Positions 1,405 to 53,354 of a stretch of 64,000 bases of DNA are shown here, one piece after another. The notes under the pieces were generated by a model. That model was not told the DNA's origin and searched no databases. It saw only the letters and a program-made list of their open reading frames with translations. Positions within the stretch are counted from its first letter, which is position 1; every line of letters starts with the position of its first letter. Source of the DNA: Candidatus Parcubacteria bacterium (GTDB taxonomy: Bacteria; Patescibacteriota; Minisyncoccia; UBA6257; HR35); assembly GCA_026004535.1 (NCBI GenBank), contig BPJI01000001.1, positions 143,915-207,914 of the forward strand, read 5' to 3'. A program made the position numbers and the translations under genes.

Positions 1405-1456
1405 AATACAGCTTCACAGCTTCTTGGCTTCACAGCTTATTAGTAATTTTATTATA

Positions 1457-5636: not shown

Positions 5637-5677
5637 AAGTCGGAAGCTGAGAAGTTATGAAGCTGTGAAGTTAGCAT

Positions 5678-13062: not shown

Positions 13063-15985
13063 ATATTAGTATGTAGACAATTGCCGAAACGTGTTAACTA
13101 CCAGGATAGACTACTGGATATAATTACGAGGATTAATGATGAATAAATTAGGTCTATATCCTGGTAGTATTATTCGGATCATATCCGAATAAAAATATTG
13201 TCAGTGGTTGTTCGTATTATTTTATATTGATTTAGTTTTTGATATTTGAATCTTAAGTAAATCAAGCGAAGAGTTTGCAGATCTAATTTTAATCTTAATT
13301 ACTTTTTTATTCTGGAGTAACATTAGTAGTGTTGAATTTTATTGTTCGCTAAAATAATATATCCTAAACCAAATTGGTTTAGGTTTTAGGATGCAGTGCT
13401 GAGATGACAAGGTCCAGCAAAAAAGTTACAGGCTAAAGGTGGATGCCTTGGGAGGAAGAGGCGATGAAGGACGCGGCTAGGCTGCGATAAGCCTGGGGGA
13501 GGCGCCGAGCAGCCATTGATCCCAGGATTTCCGAATGGGGCAACCTGACTGGAGCAAACTCCAGTCACCTTCCTTTTAAGGAGGGGGCGAACCCGGGGAA
13601 GTGAAACATCTCAGTACCCGGAGGAAAAGAGACCAATAGGCATTCCCTGAGTAGCGGCGAGCGAAAAGGGAGGAGCCCAAACACTTGTTCCGCAAGGAAC
13701 AAGTGGGTTGTAGGAACAAGACTTCCCTTAAATGGAGAGGGATAAAAGACTATTAGTCGAAGCATCCTGGAAAGGAGCGCCAAAGAGGGTGAAAGCCCCG
13801 TAGGCGAAAATAGTCTTTTATCTTGCGTCTTGTTTCCTGAGTACCTCGAGGAACGAAAGCCTTGGGGGAAACAACCGGAACCATCCGGTAAGGCTAAATA
13901 CTCTTCCTCACCGATAGTGAACTAGTACCGCGAGGGAAAGGTGAAAAGCAGGCCGGTGAGGCCGGTGAAATAGAACCTGAAACCTTTAGCCTACAAAGAG
14001 CACAAGCCCGTAAGGGTGAGTGCGTGCCTATTGAAGAATGAGCCGGCGAGTTTAGAGTATTGCCTTGTCTAAGTGCGGTTAAGCACGAAGGCAGAGTGAA
14101 AGCGAGGGTTAAAAGCCCGCCATAGGCAATACTCTAAGACCCGAAGCCAGACGATCTTACCATGGCCAGGGTGAACTTCACCGAAAGGTGAGGGGAGGCC
14201 CGAACCCGTTGGTGGCTCAAAACCATGGGATGAGCTGTGGTAAGGAGTGAAAAGCTTATCGCGTCTGGGAATAGCTGGTTCTTCCCGAAATAGCTTTAGG
14301 GCTAGCGGCTGTTAATAAGCCTTTGGAGGTAGAGCACTGATGAATTGGTAAAGGCCGAAAGGTCAGCCAATTCGTCAAACTCCGAATGCCAAAGGTTTTT
14401 TCCAGCTAGTCAGTCTATGGGGGATAAGCTCCATGGACAAGAGGGAAACAACCCAGACCATTGGCTAAGGTCCCTAAATCCTAGCTAAGTGGAGAAGGCA
14501 GTGGTTTTTCTCAGACAGATAGGAGGTTGGCTTAGAAGCAGCCATCCTTTAAAGAGTGCGTAACAGCTCACTATCAGAGAAAAATCGCGCCGAAAGATAA
14601 ACGGGGCTAAGCTAGGTACCGAAGCCATGGACCCTGTACTAAAAATACAGGGTGGTAGGGAAGCATTCCATTCGCGTTGAAGGTCTATCCGCGAGGAGGA
14701 CTGGAGCGAATGGAAGAGAGAATGCCGGCATGAGTAACCGCAAATCGCCTGAGATGGGCGATCGCCGTAAGGTCAAGGTTTCCTTGGCAATGGAAATCAG
14801 CCAAGGGTTAGGCAGGACCTAAGGTGTAGCCGAAAGGTGAAGCCGATGGAAAGCCGGTTAATATTCCGGCCCCACCTTGCTTGGCGATGGGGTGACGAAG
14901 GAAATAAGGAAAAGAGGAGTAATGGTTATCCTTTCTGTTTGAGCTAGACTGGAGAAGGAGGAAAATCCCCTTCTCTGCCTTCAATGGTAACAGTCGTTCA
15001 AACAGAGAAGCCTGTTTTTGCAGGCAACTTTTCCGAAGAGCCTTCCAGGAAAAGCCTCTAAGCTTAAAAGCAAGGTGCCTGTACTGGAAAACCGACACAG
15101 GTGGCCGAGGCGAGTAGCCTAAGGCGAACGAGTGAGACCTCCTCAAGGAACTCGGCAAAAAAGCGGGCGTAACTTCGGGATAAGCCCTGCCAAAATGGAT
15201 GTTGGAGGTTAGAGATTAGAAGTTGGATTTAATTTTTCCAACTTTATTATCTTTAACTTCCGACTTCCAATTTTTGGCCGCAGCGAAAGTTCCCCTGGCG
15301 ACTGTTTATCAAAAACACAGCTCCCTGCTTAACTGGTTAACAGGATGTATAGGGGGCGACGCCTGACCTATGCCGGAATGTTAAAGTCTTGGGGTTTTGA
15401 GAAAATTTATTTTCTCAAGGCTCACGGGACTAAGCACCGGTAAATGTCGGCGGTAACCCTGACCGTCCAAAGGTAGCGCAATTCCTTTCCGGGTAAGTTC
15501 CGGAGCGCATGAAAGGCGTAACGACTGGGGGACTGTCTCGAGGAGGCGCTCGGTGAAAATGCAATCCCCGTGAAGATGCGGGGTACTGGCAGCGGGACGA
15601 AAAGACCCTAGGAGCTTTACTGGGCTCACTCATTGATTTTGGCTTAATGGTGCACAGCGTAGTGGGGAGGCGATGAAACTTTGCTTTCGGGCAAAGTGGA
15701 GCCGTCAATGGAACACCCACCATCATTAAGTTAAGGTCTAACCCAAGGCAGAACCTTGGGGACAGTGAGTGGGGGCCAGTTTTGCTGGGGCAGCAGCCTC
15801 CTAAAGAGTAACGGAGGCGTTCAAAGGTTGGCTTGTCCTGGATGGAAACCAGGATGAAAGTGTAAAGGCATAAGCCAGCCTGACTGCAAGGCTGACAGGC
15901 CGAGCAGAGGCGAAAGCCGGACTTAGTGACCCGACGGCTCTTTATGGAAAGGCCGGAGACAACGGATAAAAGTTACCCTAGGGAT

Positions 15986-16828
15986 AAAGGTTGAAATAAA
16001 CCTGTTGTCCTCCCTCTTGGTAACAAGAGGGTAACAAAAACGCCTTATAACGGTAGAGCCTGAAAGGGTAATACCGTGGGAAGTTAAGAAGGTAAAAATG
16101 AAAATAACTAAAGAACAAAAAGCAGCTTTGATTGGAATGATTTTAGGCGATGGTTATTTACAGTCAACTGGAAAGAAGAATGCCAGATTAAGATTAGAGC
16201 ATAGAGCGCAACATTATGAATATCTGGTTTGGAAAATGAAATTGTTGCCACAACTTTTTCAAGGTAAACCGAAAATAATAAAAAGACAACACCCCTTGAC
16301 AAAAAGAATTTATAGTTATGTTAGATGCCAATCAAATTCTTCGCCTTTGTTGGGAAAGTTAAGAAGATTGTTTTATCAAGATGGTCAAAAGAAAATCCCT
16401 GAAAATATAGAAAAACTGCTAATTGATGATCTTACATTTGCAATCTGGTTTTATGATGACGGTTATTATTCTAAAAAGGATGGTTATTGTGCTATATATT
16501 TGGGGAAGATTTCTTTTGCTGAAGCTAAACTTTTGAGTCAAGCAATAACCAATAAATTCAATCTTAAAAATAAAGTTGTTGATAAAAAGAATAAAGGCTT
16601 TATGTTGTACTTTCCAGCAAGTGAGAAGATAAAGATCAAAAATATTCTTCAAAAATATTTTGTTCCAATAATGAGTTATAAAATACCTTCTTAACCCCGT
16701 AACGACTGAAGTGTTAAGCTGAGAGACAGAGATATCTACTCTGTCTAAGACGGCGTTCTCATACAAAAAATGGAGATTAGACTCCATTTTTGTATGATGA
16801 AGATATAGTCTAATCCTTAAAGGATTGA
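15986..16828 (+). mobile_element. Group I intron in 23S rRNA at the GGGAUAA/CAGGC (omega-type, E. coli ~2449) site
   Basis: Exon sequence resumes as aacaggctggttgggcccgagagtccatatcgacgg; intron ends in G after a 5' exon U; contains a LAGLIDADG ORF. Confidence 0.75.
16098..16694 (+). CDS. LAGLIDADG homing endonuclease (intron-encoded)
   Basis: 198 aa; [11 protein letters not shown] motif plus a second half-site motif region; located inside 23S intron 1. Confidence 0.8.
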
Positions 16829-16953
16829 ACAGGCTGGTTGGGCCCGAGAGTCCATATCGACGGCCCAGCTCGGCACCTCGATGTCGGCTCACCCTAGCGC
16901 GGGGCTGAACAAGGTCCCAAGCGTCGGGCTGTTCGCCCGTTAAAAGGGTACGT

Positions 16954-16989
<36 letters not shown>

Positions 16990-17035
16990 TTATCTGCTGT
17001 CAGCGTTTGGAAGCCTGAGAGGAGCTGGACCTAGT

Positions 17036-17848
17036 AAATAATTGCTACTTCCTTGAGTAATCAAGGATGACAAAGTGGCTCATAACGGTAAAAGCCAGGG
17101 TTGGTCGGATAAACATCCTCACATAGACAGTCGGTCCCTGTCTATGCTATAATTTACTTGAGGACCGATGTTAACCTGAGGCTAATACCGTGGGAAGTCA
17201 ATCTAAAGCGAACAAAATTCATTTAGCTTATATTACTGGCTTTTTAGATGGCGATGGTAGTTTAATGATGCAAATTAAAAAGAGAAAAGATATTCAAAAC
17301 GGAAAAAGATTTAGTCAACTATTTGTTTTTATCAAGACAGTGGTCATGAAAGGCCACTGTTCTGGATTAGAAAGCAATTAGGCATCGGTTATATAAGTAG
17401 AAGGAATGATGGGATTACTGAATTAAGAATTAATGGATGTCGAACTATGGCAAGAATCTTAAAAATGCTGAAGCCGTATATAAAATTTAAAGTTAAACAA
17501 GTAGATATTATGATAAAATGCGGGCAACTTCTCCAAAGGAAGTTGAGCGAAAATAATTTAAAGAAAATAGCAGTGTATATCTATGAACTGCAGAAAGCCA
17601 ATTATGCAACTAGACGCAAGAAAACATTATCAGAAATTTGTCAAGCTTTAGGTTTGACCCCGTAACGACTGAGGCGAAAGCCGAGGGTTGAGATTTTTAT
17701 CTCAGCCAAGACGCCACCACCTACAACAAATGGAGGTGAGAAGTTAGAGATGGGGAATGAGTAATTAATTCTCGCGTCTCATCTCGCACCTTCATTAGTC
17801 GTAGGTTGAAGGTATAGTCTACTCCTTCTAGTAATAGAGGGGTTAGTG
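17036..17848 (+). mobile_element. Second group I intron in 23S rRNA, inserted in the sarcin-ricin-loop region (CCUAGU/ACGAGAGGACC)
   Basis: 5' exon ...ggagctggacctagt; 3' exon acgagaggaccggtctgg; shares ...taataccgtgggaagt... and ccccgtaacgactga...aagacg blocks with intron 1. Confidence 0.7.
17190..17665 (+). pseudogene. LAGLIDADG homing endonuclease split into two ORFs (frameshift)
   Basis: ORF 17190-17381 has YITGFLDGDGSL; ORF 17447-17665 continues a LAGLIDADG C-terminal half in another frame. Confidence 0.65.
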
Positions 17849-17927
17849 ACGAGAGGACCGGTCTGGGGCAGCCTCTGGTGTAGGAGTTGTTCCTCCAGGA
17901 GCATAGCTCCGTAGCTAAGCTGCCAAG

Positions 17928-17960
<33 letters not shown>

Positions 17961-18170
17961 CACCTCAAGATTAGGCTTCCCCATTAGGCCCCGGATAGAC
18001 CATCCGGTTGATAGGCCACAGCTGTAAGCTCCGTAAGGAGTTGAGGCAAGTGGTACTAATGGCCGATTGTTTTGCTGGACTTTGTCATCTCAGCACTGCA
18101 TCTTTTCCCCAATATACAGAACTATCAGAACTGGCGCAGAACTTACAGAATTGATTTATTAATTGCTTTT

Positions 18171-18296
18171 CCTCCCCGTGGTCGTATGTCTAGTCTGGAA
18201 CCACCCCTTACATTCCGAACAGTCAGGTGAAACAGACTAGAGCCGATGATAGTCCTTTAAGGGCGAAAGTAGGTACTGCGGGGAGGATTTTTAATT
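18171..18296 (+). rRNA. rrf: 5S rRNA
   Basis: cctccccgtggtcgtatgtctagtctggaaccacc...ccgaacagtcaggtgaaac...gtactgcggggagg with terminal helix pairing. Confidence 0.85.
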
Positions 18297-21276: not shown

Positions 21277-21350
21277 GGGCCTGTAGCTCAGTTGGTTAGA
21301 GCGCTGCCATGGCATGGCAGAGGTCGGGGGTTCGAGTCCCCCCAGGTCCA
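21277..21350 (+). tRNA. tRNA-Ala (anticodon GGC)
   Basis: gggcctgtagctcagttggttagagcgctgccatGGCatggcag...ggttcgagtccccccaggtcca; G3:U70 Ala identity pair present. Confidence 0.85.
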
Positions 21351-23207
21351 CTAATAACTTAAAGCATCGCAGTCAATTTCTTCAATTTCTATTCCTTCTA
21401 AAAGTTTTTTAAGGTTAAAATCAAGTTTTGGTTTAGTTTTAATAATTAATTCTAAAAAGAATCTTTTTCTAATTTTAAATGGCCGGGCAAAGATTGGACC
21501 AAAAATTTCTATTTCCGGGTTTTCTTTTTTTAGTCTTTCTTTAATGAAAAATAATTTCTCTTGAAGTTTTTTTAAATCTATACCCCCCTCTTTTAAAATA
21601 ACTAATCTCCGAAATGGCGGCAAACTATTAATTTCTCTTTCCTTTATTAATTCATTTATTATTTCTCCTGTTTTTATTTTTGCTTCAACTCGAGGATTAA
21701 TGATGTTACCAACTAAAAATATTTTTTCAGTTTTATTTTTAAAAAAATTTAAAATCCTGATAAATTTTTCTTTAACAAAAAAGTCCTGGGCAAAGTAAAA
21801 TTCATCAAAGTTATAGAAGAAAAAAGCATCAAAATTTTCAATTAGAGGATTAAGCAAAAGCAAACTCCCAATTAAAATATATCTTTCTTCTTGATTAAAC
21901 TCCTTGATTATTTTCTTACTTTCTTTTTCTAAAAAATAAATATTCTTTTTTTTATCAAAGTCATTATTTTCTGTCAGTTCTGCGTTAGTTCCACTTAGTT
22001 CTGCGTTAGTTATTGTTTTTATTAATTTATAAATAGCCTTAGCTCCCTTATGAGAAATTAAAAAACTCGATTTTTTCTTACAAAAAGGACAAATTTCGGG
22101 TAAGTTTTGATTTTTTAAACAATAAGAGCAGTAAATAAAATTTTCTTCAGCAGCCAAGAATTTACCGCAAATATTACAAGTTAAAGTTTGCAGACAAGAT
22201 TCACAAATCAAACGGTAGCCAAAAGTTTTTTCCGGAACAAAAATAACTATCTTCTTAAATTCTTTAATTTTATCTTCAAACTCTTTTTCTGAAATTCTTT
22301 CTATAACTACGAATTGTCGCGAATTATTATACGAATTCCCGCGAACATAACCTAAATTAAATTGTTGCGATTTATTCATGTTAATTTGTTTTTTTATTTG
22401 TGTTGATTCGTAAATTAATAAATCAAAAGAAGGTAAGTCAGAAATAGCTAAGTATTTTATCTTATTAATTTCAGCGAATTTTAAAAATATTTTGCGATAA
22501 TCAAAATAAGGTGGTTTGAAAAATTCTTTGTAAAAAAACGAGCCTTCATCATAAACAATTAATTGATCTAAATTTTGCCAAGGCAAAAATATTGAGTTTT
22601 TATTACCAATAAAGGTTTCTTGATTGGTGCTAGTAATTTTTTCTAAAAGAGAAAAGAAACTTTTTTGTTGGGGCAAAATTAAATTTGCTTGAGGCAAAAT
22701 CTGTTTTAAATATTCTAAATAATTTTCTTGAGGAACAATAATTAAACTTTTTTTATTTTTTAAAATATTTTCATTAAGTTGAGACAAAACTTCAATTTCA
22801 AATTTTTTATTTAATCCGCGTTGATCCGTGTTTGATCTGCGTAAATCAGTAGCCATCATTTTCTTATAAGGGAAAAATAAAGATAAAGCAGTAGCTAAAG
22901 AAATATTGCTGTAATTTTTTAACCAAAAAGCTAATTGAAGTTGCTGTTTAGTTAATAAAGGCGAAGGATTAATAATTTTTAAGACAGGTTTTAATTGAAG
23001 TTTTTTTTCTTTTAACAGGGCTCTTCTTTTTTCAATTGATTCAAGATTAAAAACATAACCTGGTATTTTTCTTTTTTTGAATTCAACTTCAACAATAGCT
23101 CCTCTTTTGATTTTCTTTTCTGAGAAATAAGAGAAAAAATCAGGCGCATTGCTCGGTAATCTAATTAGTGGTATAATATCTATAATTAAATATTTTGATT
23201 TAATCAT
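21351..23207 (-). CDS. priA: Primosomal protein N' (PriA)-like, with Cys4 zinc-binding region but no recognisable Walker A; carries two in-frame repeat inserts
   Basis: 618 aa; N-terminal 3'-DNA-binding-like region; LIIVPQENYLEYLKQ (helicase motif Ia-like); YDEGS; CESCLQTLTCNICGK...CSYC...CPFC; inserts ATDLRRSNTDQRGLN and ITNAELSGTNAELTENND. Confidence 0.65.
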   Translation of the reverse strand: MIKSKYLIIDIIPLIRLPSNAPDFFSYFSEKKIKRGAIVEVEFKKRKIPGYVFNLESIEKRRALLKEKKLQLKPVLKIINPSPLLTKQQLQLAFWLKNYSNISLATALSLFFPYKKMMATDLRRSNTDQRGLNKKFEIEVLSQLNENILKNKKSLIIVPQENYLEYLKQILPQANLILPQQKSFFSLLEKITSTNQETFIGNKNSIFLPWQNLDQLIVYDEGSFFYKEFFKPPYFDYRKIFLKFAEINKIKYLAISDLPSFDLLIYESTQIKKQINMNKSQQFNLGYVRGNSYNNSRQFVVIERISEKEFEDKIKEFKKIVIFVPEKTFGYRLICESCLQTLTCNICGKFLAAEENFIYCSYCLKNQNLPEICPFCKKKSSFLISHKGAKAIYKLIKTITNAELSGTNAELTENNDFDKKKNIYFLEKESKKIIKEFNQEERYILIGSLLLLNPLIENFDAFFFYNFDEFYFAQDFFVKEKFIRILNFFKNKTEKIFLVGNIINPRVEAKIKTGEIINELIKEREINSLPPFRRLVILKEGGIDLKKLQEKLFFIKERLKKENPEIEIFGPIFARPFKIRKRFFLELIIKTKPKLDFNLKKLLEGIEIEEIDCDALSY

Positions 23208-30325: not shown

Positions 30326-32106
30326 TTGATGAAGAAATTCTTTTTCAACCCCGGGGCAAAAGAGTTAAGACAAGTTATTTTAAGAATCAAAACATCTTTC
30401 TTTTCGTTTTTTCTTTAATTTTTCTTTCAGGCTTAATTTATTTTTTCTACCTACAGATTTTCTTTAAACAAAAATATTTAGCTCTTGAAAAAAATTTAAA
30501 GACAATTACTTATTTTGCTTTCCCTCCTCGAGGAAAAATTTTAGATTCCCAAGGAAAAACTTTAGCTGAAGCTGAACTTACTTTTGATGCCTATGTTGAT
30601 TTAAATAAAATTCAACAATTACCATTTCAACTTTCAGGTAAATTTTTTTATCGTGGTAGTCAATTAATTATAAGAGACATTCCTCGAGAGATTGCTTTAA
30701 ATTTTTTAACTAAAAAAATTGATGGCTTAGAGATTGTGCCTTCTTTTAAAAGAGTTTATTTAGGTCATGAAGAGATTGGTAGTCTAATTGGTTATGTTGG
30801 TTTTCCTTCGAAAAATGAAACAAAATATTATCAAGAAGAATTTGTTGGCAAATCAGGTCTTGAATTGGTCTATCAAGATTATCTTAGGGGCGAGTTGGGT
30901 GAAATTGTTTATCAAATTCAAAAAAATAATTTAAGGAAGATAAAAGAAACCCAACCGCAGCCAGGTAAAAATTTGGTTTTAACTATTAATTATGATTTCC
31001 AGAAAAAGGCTTATGAGTTAATTGATGATTATTTAAGAAGAAACAATTATAAAAAAGCTGCTTTTATAGCTTTAAATCCAAATACTGGAGAAATTATTTC
31101 CTTAATTTCCTATCCTTCTTATGACCCCAATTGGTTTTTAACTAATCCAGATAAAGTCAATCAAATTTTGCAAGACAAAAATCAACCTTTGTTTAATCGA
31201 GTCGTGAGTGGTCTTTATGCTCCTGGTTCAACAATTAAATTAATTGTTGCTGCCGGTGCTTTAGAGGAAAAAATTGTTAGTCCAGAGACAGAAATTTATG
31301 CTGCTGGCGAGCTTAGATTACCTAATCCTTATTTTCCTGGTACTTATTCTATTTTTAAAGATAATAAAATTCATGGTTGGACAAATATCTATAGGGCAAT
31401 TGCTGACTCAGTTAATATTTATTTTTATGTTGTTGGCGGTGGTTATCCTTATGCTAATGATAAAATTCCAATCAGACAAGGCTTAGGCATTGAAAGATTG
31501 AATAAATGGTGGCAAAATTTTGGTTTAGGTCAAAAAACAGGCGTTGATTTAAACGGTGAAAAATCTGGCTTTTTACCATCGCCTCAAACAAAAGCAAAGA
31601 ATATTTTTGACCCTACCTGGCGTTTAGGTGATACTTATAATGTCGCAATTGGTCAAGGAGATATTTTGGTTACACCACTTCAAATTGCTTTATGGACAAG
31701 TGCTTTTACAAATAATAAAATTTACCAACCATTTATCGTCAAAAAAATTATTGATGATCAAGGAAAAATTATTTTTGAAAGGCAGTCAAAAATTTTAAAA
31801 GAAAATTTAATCAGCGAAGAAAATTTAAAAATAATCCAGAAAGCAATGAGAATGACAGTTACTCAGGGAACAGCTCAAATTCTTAATGATTTACCAGTTG
31901 CAGTTGCTGGCAAAAGTGGAACTCCGGAAATTTTTGCTAAAAAGAAATTGAATGCTATTTTTACTGGTTATTTTCCATTTGAAAAACCCGAAGTTGTAAT
32001 GACTTTACTAATTGAAGATGTGCCAAGTGGTTCAGTCGCTACTTTACCTTTGTATAAAGAATTAGTCAAAGCTTATCTAGAATCAGAACATGGAAGAAAT
32101 TTTTGA
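30322..32106 (+). CDS. mrdA: Penicillin-binding protein 2 (elongasome transpeptidase)
   Basis: 594 aa; N-terminal TM; SxxK (GSTIKL), SxN (SVN) and KSGT motifs. Confidence 0.85.
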   Translation: MIDEEILFQPRGKRVKTSYFKNQNIFLFVFSLIFLSGLIYFFYLQIFFKQKYLALEKNLKTITYFAFPPRGKILDSQGKTLAEAELTFDAYVDLNKIQQLPFQLSGKFFYRGSQLIIRDIPREIALNFLTKKIDGLEIVPSFKRVYLGHEEIGSLIGYVGFPSKNETKYYQEEFVGKSGLELVYQDYLRGELGEIVYQIQKNNLRKIKETQPQPGKNLVLTINYDFQKKAYELIDDYLRRNNYKKAAFIALNPNTGEIISLISYPSYDPNWFLTNPDKVNQILQDKNQPLFNRVVSGLYAPGSTIKLIVAAGALEEKIVSPETEIYAAGELRLPNPYFPGTYSIFKDNKIHGWTNIYRAIADSVNIYFYVVGGGYPYANDKIPIRQGLGIERLNKWWQNFGLGQKTGVDLNGEKSGFLPSPQTKAKNIFDPTWRLGDTYNVAIGQGDILVTPLQIALWTSAFTNNKIYQPFIVKKIIDDQGKIIFERQSKILKENLISEENLKIIQKAMRMTVTQGTAQILNDLPVAVAGKSGTPEIFAKKKLNAIFTGYFPFEKPEVVMTLLIEDVPSGSVATLPLYKELVKAYLESEHGRNF

Positions 32107-32980
32107 AAAACCAAATTTAAATGAAGAAGAAAAATATTTAATCGAGCCATTTTTTACCAATTTAGATAAATCAGTTTATGGTATTTTGTTTTTGCCTCCA
32201 GAAGTTGTTGGTGCCTTGTGTTCTCGCGCTTCAAGAGCTAAAGAAGATTTGAGAATTGTTTTCCTTAAAGAATTTGTTAAACCATTTTTAGAAACTGAAT
32301 ATGGTAAAAGTTTGAAAAATTTTATTGATTTTTTACACCAACATCCAGCCGAAGTTTTATTTAACAATCCTAAAGCTAGAGAATTTTATATTAAATGGTT
32401 AGCTGAATATGGTGATGATTCAATTGCTCAAATGGCTGGTACTCATTTAGTTTACTCATCTTTATCTCAAATTGCTATTAAGCATATTGAAAATCAAAGA
32501 ATTGGTCTAGCTCCAATTGAAAAATCAACTCGTTATGTTGATTATTCTCTTAAGATTAATAATCATTATCTTTATTTTACACCGCCAGAAATTGAAAAAC
32601 TTGGTTTGAAAGAGGAATATGAAAAAACAATAGACAATATTTTCGAAACTTACATTTTTCTTTTTCAAAAATACCTTGATTACTTAAAGATTAAATATTC
32701 TGAAGAAAAGGAAATTGTTTTAAAAACAAAAGTTTTTGATACGATTAGAATAATTTTACCTTTAAGTACATTAGGACAATTAGCTCTTTTTGGCAATGGC
32801 CAAGCATTTGAATATTTAATTAATAGATCATTAGAGCATCCTTTGGCAGAAATAAGATGGTTAGGTCAAAGGGCTTATGAAGAATTAAATAAAATTATTC
32901 CGGCATTTTTAAGAAGAGTTGAAAAAGAAGAAAGTAAAGAATATAGAAAATATTTAGGCTCAAAGAAGCCAAAAAATTAG
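32090..32980 (+). CDS. ThyX-like (FAD-dependent thymidylate synthase fold) protein with a degenerate RHR motif
   Basis: GALCSRASRA resembles the ThyX N-terminal AARVSY block; IAIKHIENQRIGLAPIEKSTRY aligns to the ThyX RHR...SGRY block but reads NQR. Confidence 0.4.
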   Translation: MEEIFEKPNLNEEEKYLIEPFFTNLDKSVYGILFLPPEVVGALCSRASRAKEDLRIVFLKEFVKPFLETEYGKSLKNFIDFLHQHPAEVLFNNPKAREFYIKWLAEYGDDSIAQMAGTHLVYSSLSQIAIKHIENQRIGLAPIEKSTRYVDYSLKINNHYLYFTPPEIEKLGLKEEYEKTIDNIFETYIFLFQKYLDYLKIKYSEEKEIVLKTKVFDTIRIILPLSTLGQLALFGNGQAFEYLINRSLEHPLAEIRWLGQRAYEELNKIIPAFLRRVEKEESKEYRKYLGSKKPKN

Positions 32981-33082
32981 AGAAATTCAATTTTGAAGAT
33001 CGATAAGACGCTTAAGACGTCAATACTCTTAAGATAAAGTTAAATTAATCGAATATGATCCCTGAAGGTGAAGATAAGATAA

Positions 33083-33949
33083 TTGCTGGACTTTTGTATC
33101 CTGAAGTCTAAAGAACCTTATGAGAAAATTTTAGCTAAAGTTAAGAAGCCTTTCTTTATCAGAGAAAGAAGAAAGATTTTAGAAAAAGTTTTGAAAGAGA
33201 GAAAATATCGCTGGTATAAAGTGCCTCGAGCTTTTGAAAATGTTTATTTAAGATTTGAAATTTTATTAAATATTGGTGCTTGGCGAGATTTACAAAGACA
33301 TCGAATGCAAACTCAATATCATCAAAAATTTACACATTGATAATGGCTTTGATGTCCCTGAAGAATTAAAAGAAATTGGTTTGGAAGAAAAATTTATCTT
33401 CAGCTATTAAAAAATTAGAAACCTTTTATCAAAAAATTAAAGATCCAGATTTAGCTCAATATGCAGTTAGTTTTGCCCATCGCGTTCGTTTTATTCAATA
33501 TCAAAATTTAAGACAATTTTTTTGGGAAACAGAACTAAGAACAACTCCCCAGGGCCATCCTGATTATCGTAAAATCGAGCAAGAAAAAGCAAAAATAATT
33601 CAAAAAATTTATCCTTTGATTGCTAAATATTTATTAGTTGATTTTCAGGAATATGAATTTGCCCGACGCGAAAGCATTAAAAAAATAAAAGTCAAAGAAG
33701 AAGAATTAAGAAAGATGATATAATTATTTTAGGTCAAAATTAAATTTATTTTTTAAGATGAATAATCATATATATAATTTATTTTCTCAATTGGTTCAAA
33801 ATCGAAGAAGTATTTATCGGATTCAAAAGTTTTATTTAAAAGATGCTCGAGGTTGTAAAAAATGCCTGGATTTTTGGAAGCAAGTTTTAAAGCAAAAAGA
33901 AGCAGAGACAAAAGAACTTATTAATTTAATCAAGGCTCATAAAATCTAA
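33083..33949 (+). pseudogene. Frameshifted fragments of a second ThyX-like domain (RHR motif present)
   Basis: ORF 33083-33340 ends ...GAWRDLQRHRMQTQ...; continuation GFDVPEELKEIGLEEKFIF is in another frame; ORF 33376-33723 is in a third frame; 32981-33082 is stop-rich. Confidence 0.45.
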
Positions 33950-34241
33950 ATTTACTCATCTCCACTACTTAATACCATAGTATTCATATCGGGACAGATG
34001 ATATCCCGATATTTTTCTGAAGCTGAGAACTTGGAAGCTTATCCTAAACTCTACGTGGTTTAGGGTTATTTTCTGTTAGTTCTGTGTTTTATAACAGAAA
34101 AAGATTTCAAACTTAAAACTGGTTCAATTCTCTATTGCTACGTAGCAATGAACTTTTTGCCTTTTTTATTAGAAATTTAAAATTTAAGACGTAAGACGTC
34201 TTAAACATTAATTTATGCTATGAAACTAGGAAGCTGAGAAG

Positions 34242-34343
34242 CTATTTAGTTGCTTCATAAAGAGCCTTTATTTCTTGGTCTGATAAAGCACGATTATAGA
34301 TTCGGACTTCATCGATGAGACCTTGAAAATAGATAGCGCACCT
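34242..34343 (-). pseudogene. Orphan C-terminal fragment of a LamG-domain protein
   Basis: Minus-strand translation ...GLIDEVRIYNRALSDQEIKALYEATK* is the classic LamG/concanavalin C-terminal motif; an in-frame stop lies 8 codons upstream. Confidence 0.6.
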
Positions 34344-34679
34344 CTACGCGACACCTCTACTGTTGCTCCGAGTTTGCAATACAATATGTGAGTATAATAT
34401 TCTTGCTAAATCCTAATTCAATTTTAGATGCCTTATATCCATTGATTAACAACATTTGGCTCCATTAATACTGCAACAGATTAGATATTGGCCGAATAAT
34501 TCACATTATTACACAACTCAGCCAATTCCTGCAACCTTGCATCGCATACTAAATGTAAATATGAAACGCCTACCCACATGCTCTCTTGTATTACAAATCT
34601 ATACCAGTGATCCTAATTGGACAATTTATTAAAGCCATAAAGTCTATCTGGATGCATTAATACTAAGGATTGTAGTATG

Positions 34680-35594
34680 TTATACATAATCATCCACTCC
34701 ATCAAAACTTAAAGCTTTACCTACTTTACCATCAACACATTGAGGTCCATTCATTAAGGTTCCATTATTGTTGTTTCCTGATAAATCTTTAGCAGTACAA
34801 TCATCAAAACTCCAATAACCTACAAGTCCTTGAGCTTGGTCAATTAGTCTTTTGTTTGTTCCTGCTGAATAAAGATGAGGGTAGTTATCATTATCATTTT
34901 TTGAAGCTTGAGATTGAGGATTTTCTAATTGAGCATAGAGGGCATAACTTCCTCCTGCAACAAATGAATAGTAATATGGAGGTTTGTTGATTGGGTCAAT
35001 GAAAAGTCTAGGAATGTTTAAGATTGAGTAGTTTGAAAAAGGAATCGGTATCCACCCTGTACCATCTGTATTCTCTGGTGTTGCTGAGCATCTATATGAG
35101 AAACCTGAAGGTAAAGATGGAAGTTGAGATAACCAAGAGGAACAGTTTGGATTTGAATCAGGTAAGGATATATAGACAACATTTGATGAGGCATATTGAA
35201 GTTCAGAGAAAGTGTAGTCTGTGGCATAAATTGAATCTAACAGTTTTTCAATATTTGATAAATCTGAGACTCTTTTTGTATCTCTACCTTTTTTAAAGAT
35301 ATCTGTTGGTTTGATAACAACTATTAAAACTGTAGCAAGAATTGCAATTAAGGCTAAAACAACCAAAAGTTCAACTAAGGTAAAAGAAGCTTGCGGTTCT
35401 TTTGGTTTGATGAACCAATTCGGTCTTCGCTTATGCTTGAGTTTGAAAGTTTTCATACGGCCTAAACAAATCTTGCTTGTCGAATTTGATCTACATTCTT
35501 CAGAACTTTTTGACCTGAACCAAGTTATTGCTTTGTTTTGAGTTACGGCGTGGTGCTTGGTATTAGATAGTATTTTGTTTTTGTTATTATTCAT
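34680..35594 (-). CDS. Type IV pilin-like N-terminus fused to the start of a LamG domain; 3' truncated
   Basis: ASFTLVELLVVLALIAILATVLIVV prepilin-type helix after a ~68 aa leader; C-terminal LVGYWSFDDCTAKDLSGNNNNGTLMNGPQCVDGKVGKALSFDGVDDYV* is a LamG N-terminal consensus. Confidence 0.55.
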   Translation of the reverse strand: MNNNKNKILSNTKHHAVTQNKAITWFRSKSSEECRSNSTSKICLGRMKTFKLKHKRRPNWFIKPKEPQASFTLVELLVVLALIAILATVLIVVIKPTDIFKKGRDTKRVSDLSNIEKLLDSIYATDYTFSELQYASSNVVYISLPDSNPNCSSWLSQLPSLPSGFSYRCSATPENTDGTGWIPIPFSNYSILNIPRLFIDPINKPPYYYSFVAGGSYALYAQLENPQSQASKNDNDNYPHLYSAGTNKRLIDQAQGLVGYWSFDDCTAKDLSGNNNNGTLMNGPQCVDGKVGKALSFDGVDDYV

Positions 35595-35728
35595 TTTTTT
35601 TAATTATAACACATTAACTTGTGAACTCGTTAATTCGTTAACTTTTGAATCGAATAATCAAATATATGATATAATTATAACGTATAAGAGGCTGAAACCT
35701 AAGAAGCTGAGAAGCTGAAAGATAAATT

Positions 35729-35802
35729 GCCAGGGTAGCTCAGTTGGTTAGAGCACCGCTCTGGTAATGCGGAGGTCACGGGTTCAAATCCCGTCCCTGG
35801 CT
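35729..35802 (+). tRNA. tRNA-Thr (anticodon GGT)
   Basis: gccagggtagctcagttggttagagcaccgctctGGTaatgcggaggtcacgggttcaaatcccgtccctggc. Confidence 0.8.
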
Positions 35803-35879
35803 CAATGTCGTTAATTAAGTTATTGAAATTCAAATTCGCGTAGATCTGCGTTAAAATTCGCGTAGATCCGCGTTAATTC

Positions 35880-52847: not shown

Positions 52848-52921
52848 GCGGCGGTAGTTCAGTGGTAGAACGTCTCCCTTCCAAGGAGAAGGTCGCGGGT
52901 TCAAATCCCGTCCGCCGCTCA
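52848..52921 (+). tRNA. tRNA-Gly (anticodon TCC)
   Basis: gcggcggtagttcagtggtagaacgtctcccTTCCAAggagaaggtcgcgggttcaaatcccgtccgccgctc. Confidence 0.85.
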
Positions 52922-52979: not shown

Positions 52980-53354
52980 ATGTTAAAATTATTATTCATG
53001 GTAAAAGGTTTCGAAGAACTGATTGTTTTTCAAAAAGCAAGAGATTTAACTAAACTTATTTACAATTTAACTAAAAAAGAAGAGTTTAAGAAAGATTTTG
53101 GTTTAGTTGATCATATCAGGCGGGCATCAGTTTCAATAATTTCTAACATTGCTGAGGGTTTTGAGCGAGGAACAAAAGAAGAACTTCCACATTTTCTTTA
53201 TATAGCCAAAGCTTCTTGTGGCGAAGTAAGGGCTCAAATAAAAGTTTCAGGGTTTAAAGGTTTAAAATATAAGAAAGTAAAACCTAAAGATGTCGAAGAA
53301 TTCGATAGAATGTTAGAAAAAATTTTAGCCAAAAGACAAACGCTAATCATTTAA
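52980..53354 (+). CDS. Four-helix-bundle protein (TIGR02436 family: 'S23 ribosomal'/rRNA-IVS protein, also the Avd family of DGRs)
   Basis: 124 aa; ...IVFQKARDLTKLIYNLTKK...SNIAEGFERGTKEELPHFLYIAKASCGEVRAQI... family signature. Confidence 0.65.
   Translation: MLKLLFMVKGFEELIVFQKARDLTKLIYNLTKKEEFKKDFGLVDHIRRASVSIISNIAEGFERGTKEELPHFLYIAKASCGEVRAQIKVSGFKGLKYKKVKPKDVEEFDRMLEKILAKRQTLII

Follow-up and report, generated by a model that had tools for sequence, protein, structure and literature searches.

The stretch of DNA considered here, a window of 64,000 nucleotides from the Candidatus Parcubacteria genome KatS3mg096 (Paceibacteria, family HR35; assembly GCA_026004535.1, contig BPJI01000001.1, positions 143,915 to 207,914), carries on its minus strand, at 34182-35594, a gene for a type IV pilin fused to a LamG lectin domain, in which 348 bp of non-coding DNA, called the filler below, occupy the place of the lectin core. 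Both ends of the filler fall, to the codon, on the two junctions at which members of the pilin-LamG family pass from conserved to unrelated sequence, and the coding sequence on either side bears the signature of purifying selection. Since the flanks look selected and the breakpoints are the variability junctions, recombination guided by those junctions would best explain the lesion. Our reading, to which we give a probability of roughly 0.55, is that one paralogue of a mosaic pilin-LamG family of Paceibacteria truly carries a dead cassette, brought about by such recombination or left behind in a copy whose flanks are refreshed.

Anatomy of the disrupted gene

The open reading frame (ORF) annotated at 34680..35594 (minus strand) encodes 304 aa and closes with TAA. 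Its true start is likely M47 at 35456 and not the annotated beginning at 35594; homologues begin 5-10 aa ahead of FTLIELL. The 5' module (34683..35456, minus) is intact and comprises the prepilin leader, the pilin domain and the first 49 LamG codons (GLVGYW...FDGVDDYV). Residues 68-90 of the ORF, reading SFTLVELLVVLALIAILATVLIVVI, match the prepilin N-terminal methylation or class III signal motif (SFTLVELLVVLALIAILA..., 35325..35393, minus; PF07963, E=3.7e-6), and the protein shows the leader, the F-T-L-[IV]-E motif and the hydrophobic helix of a type IV prepilin. The LamG 5' flank (34683..34829, minus) is conserved across the family, agrees with the homologue P0017 in 46 of 49 aa (DNA identity 84-90%) and ends at the 5' variability junction, DDYV. 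The first codon past that junction is a TAA stop (34680..34682, minus), the product ending in ...KALSFDGVDDYV. A preliminary description of this DNA had reported that the prepilin and LamG start break off abruptly at 34680 after FDGVDDYV, and both the ORF and the public protein KatS3mg096_171 agree with it. The latter is 100% identical to the 304-aa product, so the stop is present in the deposited genome.

Beyond the filler (34332..34679, minus) lies the LamG tail, YFQGLIDEVRIYNRALSDQEIKALYEATK with a TAG codon (34242..34331, minus), intact but untranslatable. A C-terminal LamG consensus downstream of the break had been noticed before, and PF13385 does match there. No complete Laminin_G_3 domain (PF13385, ~150 residues) in one frame was found in the gene, however, the tail alone aligning with model positions 126/130-151 of 151. 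Compared with the consensus TTCAATGGT, the tail may have lost a single nucleotide at TTCAA-GGT, as read from the sequence. The two halves, earlier taken to lie out of frame, in fact share one reading frame, in which 123 codons with 11 in-frame stops separate them. At most, a lectin-less pilin would be made from this gene. Past the tail, the AGCTTCTCAGCTTCC motif and then a terminator hairpin (34182..34243, minus) form the 3' end signals, and both are kept at the orthologous locus.

The filler is non-coding and stands in place of a core

In six frames no ORF of the filler exceeds 43 codons on the coding strand, which bears out the earlier remark that no coding-strand ORF lies between the halves, or 58 codons on the other strand. 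Stops number 11, 6 and 8 in the frames of the coding strand and 5, 8 and 10 in the others, about as many as in random sequence of this composition, and reading the filler as its reverse complement, reversed only or complemented only likewise gave non-coding sequence. Three-base periodicity is absent from it (p=0.49, against p=2e-11 for the N-terminal part of the gene), and its codon-usage log-likelihood ratio is no better than that of shuffled sequences in any frame or any 87-nt window.

The preliminary description had called for the lesion to be sized against intact relatives. Between FDGVDDYV and DEVRIYNRAL, 57 intact homologues have 122-144 residues (median 131); the gene in the window has 123 codons there, within that range, which argues that the filler replaces the core. 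The idea of an insertion, raised earlier as one possibility, thus does not hold. For the same reason we find it very improbable that a foreign element resides in the gene, whether an insertion sequence (IS) or miniature inverted-repeat transposable element (MITE), a self-splicing intron, an invertible segment or an embedded non-coding RNA. Such an element would account for a non-coding segment with sharp bounds and a composition unlike that of the pilin part, but the core is replaced and not interrupted, and the flanks, if joined, would make a LamG domain lacking ~120 residues. An IS or MITE should have left boundary repeats and added length, and neither was seen, the filler boundaries showing no meaningful terminal inverted or direct repeats. 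An invertible segment or shufflon is at odds with a reverse strand that is non-coding and with boundaries free of inverted repeats. As for an intron or other structured RNA, searching the filler against Rfam, both at gathering thresholds and at E<=10, returned only mir-27 (34474-34539, E=9.8), a chance-level match of 12.9 bits where the gathering score is 48.5, and folding of the two strands gave z-scores of +0.07 and -0.36, i.e. no excess stability. Neither a phage nor a plasmid match was obtained.

In composition (A.318, C.138, G.218, T.327; G>C skew +0.23) the filler resembles the mean of 7 intact LamG cores (A.311, C.141, G.201, T.346), and its G content stands against.137 in the adjacent intergenic DNA. 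The plus strand is G-poor here, with a GC skew of -0.33 to -0.39, of the kind already present in the LamG 5' flank. The earlier statement that the segment is compositionally different and G-poor on the plus strand is therefore correct with respect to the pilin part and the adjacent intergenic DNA, from which the filler differs, but not with respect to LamG-core DNA, from which it is indistinguishable.

A mosaic family with two variability junctions

The query has 608 homologues, typically of ~400 aa and with both PF07963 and PF13385, matching with E-values down to 1e-116 and at 57-78% identity over >90% of its length. In the family alignment the 5' module is conserved up to FDGVDDYV, the core is almost unconserved and the tail is conserved again, so the layout is that of a 5' module, a LamG core of ~125 aa that is apparently swapped wholesale between near-identical genes, and a 26-aa tail. 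Thus, of 35 pairs of homologues with an identity of 80% or more between their 5' modules, 34 have cores that are only 19-37% identical, and tails that are 67-96% identical.

The junctions are sharpest in the genome KatS3mg093, where the DNA of two copies, P0017 and P0018 (loci L039 and L040), is 100% identical over a run of ~770 nt that starts at -25 relative to the ATG and reaches to GATTATGT, which ends in the Val codon of DDYV. Past that codon the similarity drops sharply to the random level, and the two become alignable again only at F/S-N-G-x-IDEV. The identical block stands at different loci (L039 5990-6722 and L040 2704-3436), followed by unrelated cores and by tails that are ~85% identical, a pattern that indicates that the block was converted or duplicated very recently, with an end sharp to the codon. 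A third family gene lies in tandem upstream at L039. The gene in the window breaks at exactly both of these junctions, to the codon, and its lesion occupies precisely the hypervariable LamG-core slot. The suggestion, made in the preliminary description, of a pseudogene or the remnant of a variable cassette is thereby upheld; the filler is non-coding DNA, and the lesion is an ordinary one of the pseudogene type in a known kind of gene.

Other loci tell of similar exchanges and similar damage. In the homologues P0021 and P0105, one and the same frameshifted cassette is joined to different pilin modules, and the 5' modules of L002 and L004 are 97-99% identical in different genomic contexts. Of 34 junction-containing loci surveyed ~25 are intact; a first count put the lesions at ~9/34 loci, and the itemised list holds eight, namely a nonsense codon in the core of L001 and L091, a frameshift in the core of L003/L062, L044 and L080, a core deletion in L002 and heavy decay in L004. 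From this pattern the family appears to be a mosaic, recombining one, whose lectin part is prone to lesions.

Some of these lesions are worth describing individually. The frameshifts of L003 (3885-3895), L062, which has the same sequence, and L044 (1090-1100) fall at the same place in the LamG core, on a homopolymer of T8 in L003/L062 and of T7 in L044, in independent assemblies, and they may represent slipped-strand phase variation of the lectin domain. In L004 (3976-4276), an insertion of 42 nt in the tail duplicates part of the IDEV junction, and a second orphan tail (SEIKTLYEATK and a stop) follows ~170 nt downstream with short-repeat DNA ahead of it; these features have the look of scars left by recombination at the 3' junction. 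Single in-frame stops in otherwise intact cores are found in L001 (4805), L041 (10625) and L091, two of them at or beside a conserved Trp (TLAA-TGA-VRV in L001 and VVNQW-stop-HIVVV in L091), where they would most simply be TGG>TGA/TAG nonsense mutations; the genes neighbouring stops of this kind showed no sign of a code with recoded UGA.

Within KatS3mg096 itself there are five paralogues of the family, one of them intact (_301, 394 aa) and four cut, each at the start of a block that varies in the family alignment. Of these four, _126 (168 aa) ends directly after GGSY, _085 (214 aa) and _293 (223 aa) directly after GNNNNGT, and the window copy, _171 (304 aa), directly after DDYV.

Selection on the flanks and the question of decay in place

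Locus L040 of KatS3mg093 holds an intact syntenic orthologue in the context ProRS-MreB-MreC-PBP ... pilin-LamG ... tRNA-KH-ScpB-S11 peptidase, with the same downstream motif and terminator as the gene in the window. The 5' modules of the two are 65-90% identical in DNA. In the pilin part the ratio of non-synonymous to synonymous change (dN/dS) comes to 0.32, and in the LamG 5' flank it falls to 0.13. In the LamG tail, the proportions of non-synonymous and synonymous differences are 0.05 (pN) and 0.58 (pS). Long neutrality would have loaded the 78-nt tail and the 147-nt flank with non-synonymous changes, and since few are seen, slow decay in place would be excluded, unless recombination keeps refreshing the flanks.

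An old pseudogene that decayed where it stands, with a core long neutral, a 5' module under selection as a LamG-less pilin and a tail preserved by chance or by conversion, is accordingly improbable in our estimation. It is true that LamG-less or truncated homologues are frequent, that L004 pairs a heavily decayed core with a canonical tail, and that 5' modules are homogenised between loci. Against these stand not only the differences of the tail and LamG 5' flank from the orthologue, almost all of them synonymous, but also both boundaries, which coincide with the family junctions to the codon, and the composition of the filler, which is off the intergenic equilibrium (G.218 vs.137). Moreover, a strong coding signal persists in the adjacent thyX fragments (see below), so the region cannot in general be regarded as ancient junk.

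The pathway that we favour would be as follows. Recombination or replacement guided by the junctions would fill the cassette slot with a segment that is defective or non-coding or, as an equivalent alternative, recombination would keep refreshing the flanks of a copy already dead. In either case translation would stop at the first codon past the 5' junction and the lectin domain would be lost from the pilin. Gradual decay in place, insertion and mutagenesis by a retroelement all fit worse than recombination or replacement.

Where the filler came from

We infer a recombinational origin from the junctions and flanks, and several observations weigh against it. No donor copy of the filler was found by blastn in the window, in 121 related loci, in phages or in plasmids, and an exact 22-mer of it had no match in JGI metagenome contigs. 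No other surveyed locus has a filler so wholly unrecognisable. A frameshift-tolerant alignment to 65 cores did not show it to be LamG-like (p ~0.1), the same test recognising the naturally decayed core of L004 with 0/150 shuffles as good (z ~+6). The window 5' module is just 81% identical to the other four KatS3mg096 paralogues, so refreshment of the flanks from those paralogues is not demonstrated. The filler keeps a coding-type G>C composition though its codon structure is gone, which ordinary neutral decay does not predict. Finally, a donor with junk between good flanks would merely shift the question one step back.

Other searches with the filler gave little. Within the 64 kb, the stretch 34200-34760 has no exact repeat of more than 14 nt, the nearest being one 20-nt match at 90%. 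Neither blastx nor a hidden Markov model (HMM) of 57 cores gave a signal, at a low power for the HMM, which recognised its control, L004, only weakly as well. In Pfam searches with chimeras of flank, filler frame and tail, the tail alone aligned in all six frames; the frame +1 translation had no relatives among 5.8 billion proteins; the reverse strand is not LamG-like; and peptide k-mers common to the filler and real cores reached z=1.6 at best. Smith-Waterman alignment of frame +1 with the core of P0123, a paralogue from the same genome, was collinear, with p between 0.0007 and 0.04 depending on the scoring, and P0123 ranked first of 65 cores in this respect, a similarity that is weak, post hoc and scoring-dependent. 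The evidence that the filler would once have been a LamG core is thus weak; the filler is non-coding DNA, possibly part degenerate core and part intergenic-type sequence. A second decayed tail, which had been suspected by eye within the filler, was rejected at the DNA level (p 0.2-0.46).

Is the filler genuine DNA?

That the filler exists as such in cells is likewise inferred, and the alternative we take most seriously, though we think it unlikely, is that many different intact cores coexist at this locus in the population and that the assembler collapsed or polished a heterogeneous bubble into meaningless sequence. KatS3mg096 was assembled from PacBio HiFi reads with metaFlye 2.8.3 (Kato et al. 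2022, PMC9671151), at 31.6x coverage, into 16 contigs of 844 kb in total. An artefact of this kind would explain at one stroke the junction-exact bounds, the length within range, a LamG-like composition devoid of codon structure and the selected flanks, and also why 4/5 KatS3mg096 paralogues are cut while the listed copies of KatS3mg093, KatS3mg094 and KatS3mg095 have full-length ORFs. Core swaps between near-identical genes make strain polymorphism plausible, and many homologues stand on short-read contigs of 1-3 kb, some of which end in the core, as contigs do at polymorphic loci. Combining 7 real cores into a naive consensus indeed yields pristine flanks with frameshifts and stops between them. 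However, this consensus retains clear LamG motifs and loses C and G, and the filler shows neither. By our reasoning, polishers favour the draft or the plurality allele, and junk would need about ten alleles, none in the majority, among ~32 reads.

A further point against a blend of LamG cores is that the 3' end of the filler holds, at 34337..34351 (minus), a good copy, differing at 2 positions, of the near-palindromic intergenic motif TCGCGTAGATCTGCG, which such blending would not be expected to produce. The motif has 4 matches where 0.13 would be expected and stands as a tandem pair in the spacer from tRNA-Thr to the KH-domain gene, where a 22-nt tandem repeat (35829-35872, plus) contains the near-palindrome TCGCGTAGATC(T/C)GCG; the filler copy (34337-34351, minus) is thus a third, inverted one. 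The presence of a local intergenic motif inside the filler argues for genuine DNA. GC-rich short repeats of a similar kind fill the spacers beside the pilin-LamG genes of L004 and L040.

A related and rather doubtful proposal is that the ~370-bp core is an exchangeable cassette, swapped at two fixed junctions, one after DDYV and the other before F-x-G-x-IDEV, by a dedicated or at least highly efficient recombination that does not involve a diversity-generating retroelement, and that the junk arose as a failure or null outcome of the exchange or is a blur made by the assembler. Were it true, it would imply an extreme diversity of host-binding specificity within a population. Long-read consensus assemblies and the gene calls made on them may in any case be unreliable at loci of this kind.

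No sign of a diversity-generating retroelement

Diversity-generating retroelements (DGRs) are common in the genomes of the Candidate Phyla Radiation (CPR), where surface lectin-like domains are typical targets, and their variable regions usually measure ~100-150 bp. The preliminary description leaned towards a DGR, while stating, correctly, that the window has no reverse transcriptase (RT). The only ORF in the 64 kb with a Y-x-DD motif is that of ProRS (prolyl-tRNA synthetase), and no other is RT-like; in 40 related loci (522 kb, window included) there is no RT motif; and no repeat of the filler that could be a template repeat (TR) lies within the 64 kb. A DGR variable region should stand in frame at the 3' end of an intact ORF, and the filler is non-coding in all frames.

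We therefore find it barely credible that mutagenic retrohoming from a template repeat elsewhere in the genome acts, or once acted, on the filler. One feature that speaks for it is the gene that had been put forward as Avd-like, an ORF at 52980-53354 (plus) matching PF05635, the 23S rRNA intervening-sequence protein with a four-helix bundle, which we take to be the family to which the Avd proteins of DGRs are related. The ORF is indeed there, but it lies 18 kb from the pilin gene, between a tRNA (52848-52919), which it follows directly, and a Wzy_C O-antigen ligase/TPR protein, and not beside an RT or TR. The filler, at 348 bp, exceeds the usual length of a variable region, and the cores of paralogues are unrelated wholesale, with no pattern of adenine-templated substitution. 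In the accessible sequence a DGR is unsupported, and to report the locus as the target of one would be unwarranted. Outside the window, the KatS3mg096 bin also includes a 69-kb and a 38.5-kb circular contig, both phage-like and labelled 'putative chromid', which could carry retroelements.

Relation to known systems

In its 5' module, LamG start, tail and the context of its intact orthologue, the gene is the same as the type IV (pseudo)pilins of Patescibacteria that end in a LamG or concanavalin-like lectin domain (PF07963 + PF13385). Unlike those, the copy in the window has a lectin core that is missing or non-coding, and the adhesin cannot be made. The family as a whole recalls Neisseria pilE/pilS and other segmentally recombining adhesins in being multi-copy, with conserved segments flanking a hypervariable one, in its sharp mosaicism, in the identical blocks common to different loci and in the several defective copies per genome. 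Unlike pilS, the defective copies here have lost the variable part and retain the conserved, promoter-proximal module, and neither a dedicated recombination signal nor a silent cassette array of the pilE/pilS type was found. With DGR targets the family shares a surface lectin-type domain, a local hypervariable region near the 3' end and the PF05635 ORF elsewhere in the window; it lacks an RT, a TR and an adenine-specific pattern, and a block of ~370 bp is replaced wholesale and is non-coding in the window copy. The frequent lesions in the adhesin part, including the T7-T8 frameshift common to three relatives, bring to mind phase-variable contingency genes, but the window copy has no such tract and its lesion could not be reversed by slippage.

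On its own, the locus is of little consequence, since the adhesin gene in it is dead; there is more to be gained from the family, with its codon-sharp exchange of lectin cores, its homogenisation of blocks between loci and its high lesion rate limited to the lectin part. Episymbionts of the CPR rely on pili for attachment to their hosts. If active variation or strong polymorphism of these genes is true, it would bear on how CPR bacteria change host specificity.

Neighbouring genes and other features of the window

A second motif, GAAGCTGAGAAGCT, has 7 matches against 0.4 expected and lies directly upstream of three tRNA genes, among others at 1410-1431 (minus), 5643-5672 (plus), 35703-35716 (plus), 34230-34243 (plus) and 34019-34032 (plus). 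It also stands directly past the LamG stop codon, and this downstream copy is kept in L040. Since the motif is present at both ends, the entire pilin gene stands between direct repeats of 21 nt, identical at 19/21 positions. The motif might serve as a promoter or leader element or be a site of recombination. The tRNA-Thr(GGT) gene at 35729..35803 (plus) is the divergent neighbour of the pilin gene and an anchor of synteny, the tRNAs being in the same place in L040.

On the other side, at 32090-33723 (plus), is the thyX-like region, which begins with an intact Thy1-domain ORF (32090-32980). Past it come ~100 nt with 5 in-frame stops and then a second Thy1 domain in two fragments (33083-33340 and 33376-33723), the region as a whole using three different frames. 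The strong coding signal of the fragments suggests either recent frameshifts or a degenerate second domain. The entire thyX stretch is missing at the orthologous locus L040.

Among the RNA genes, there is no 16S rRNA in the window, and a 23S rRNA match in 13416-18284 covers 2609 nt of the 2925-position model. The gap between the 23S and 5S rRNA genes is ~2.1 kb and holds an ORF of 198 aa (16098-16694). An Rfam match to HPnc0260, at 21315-21470, overlaps a tRNA.

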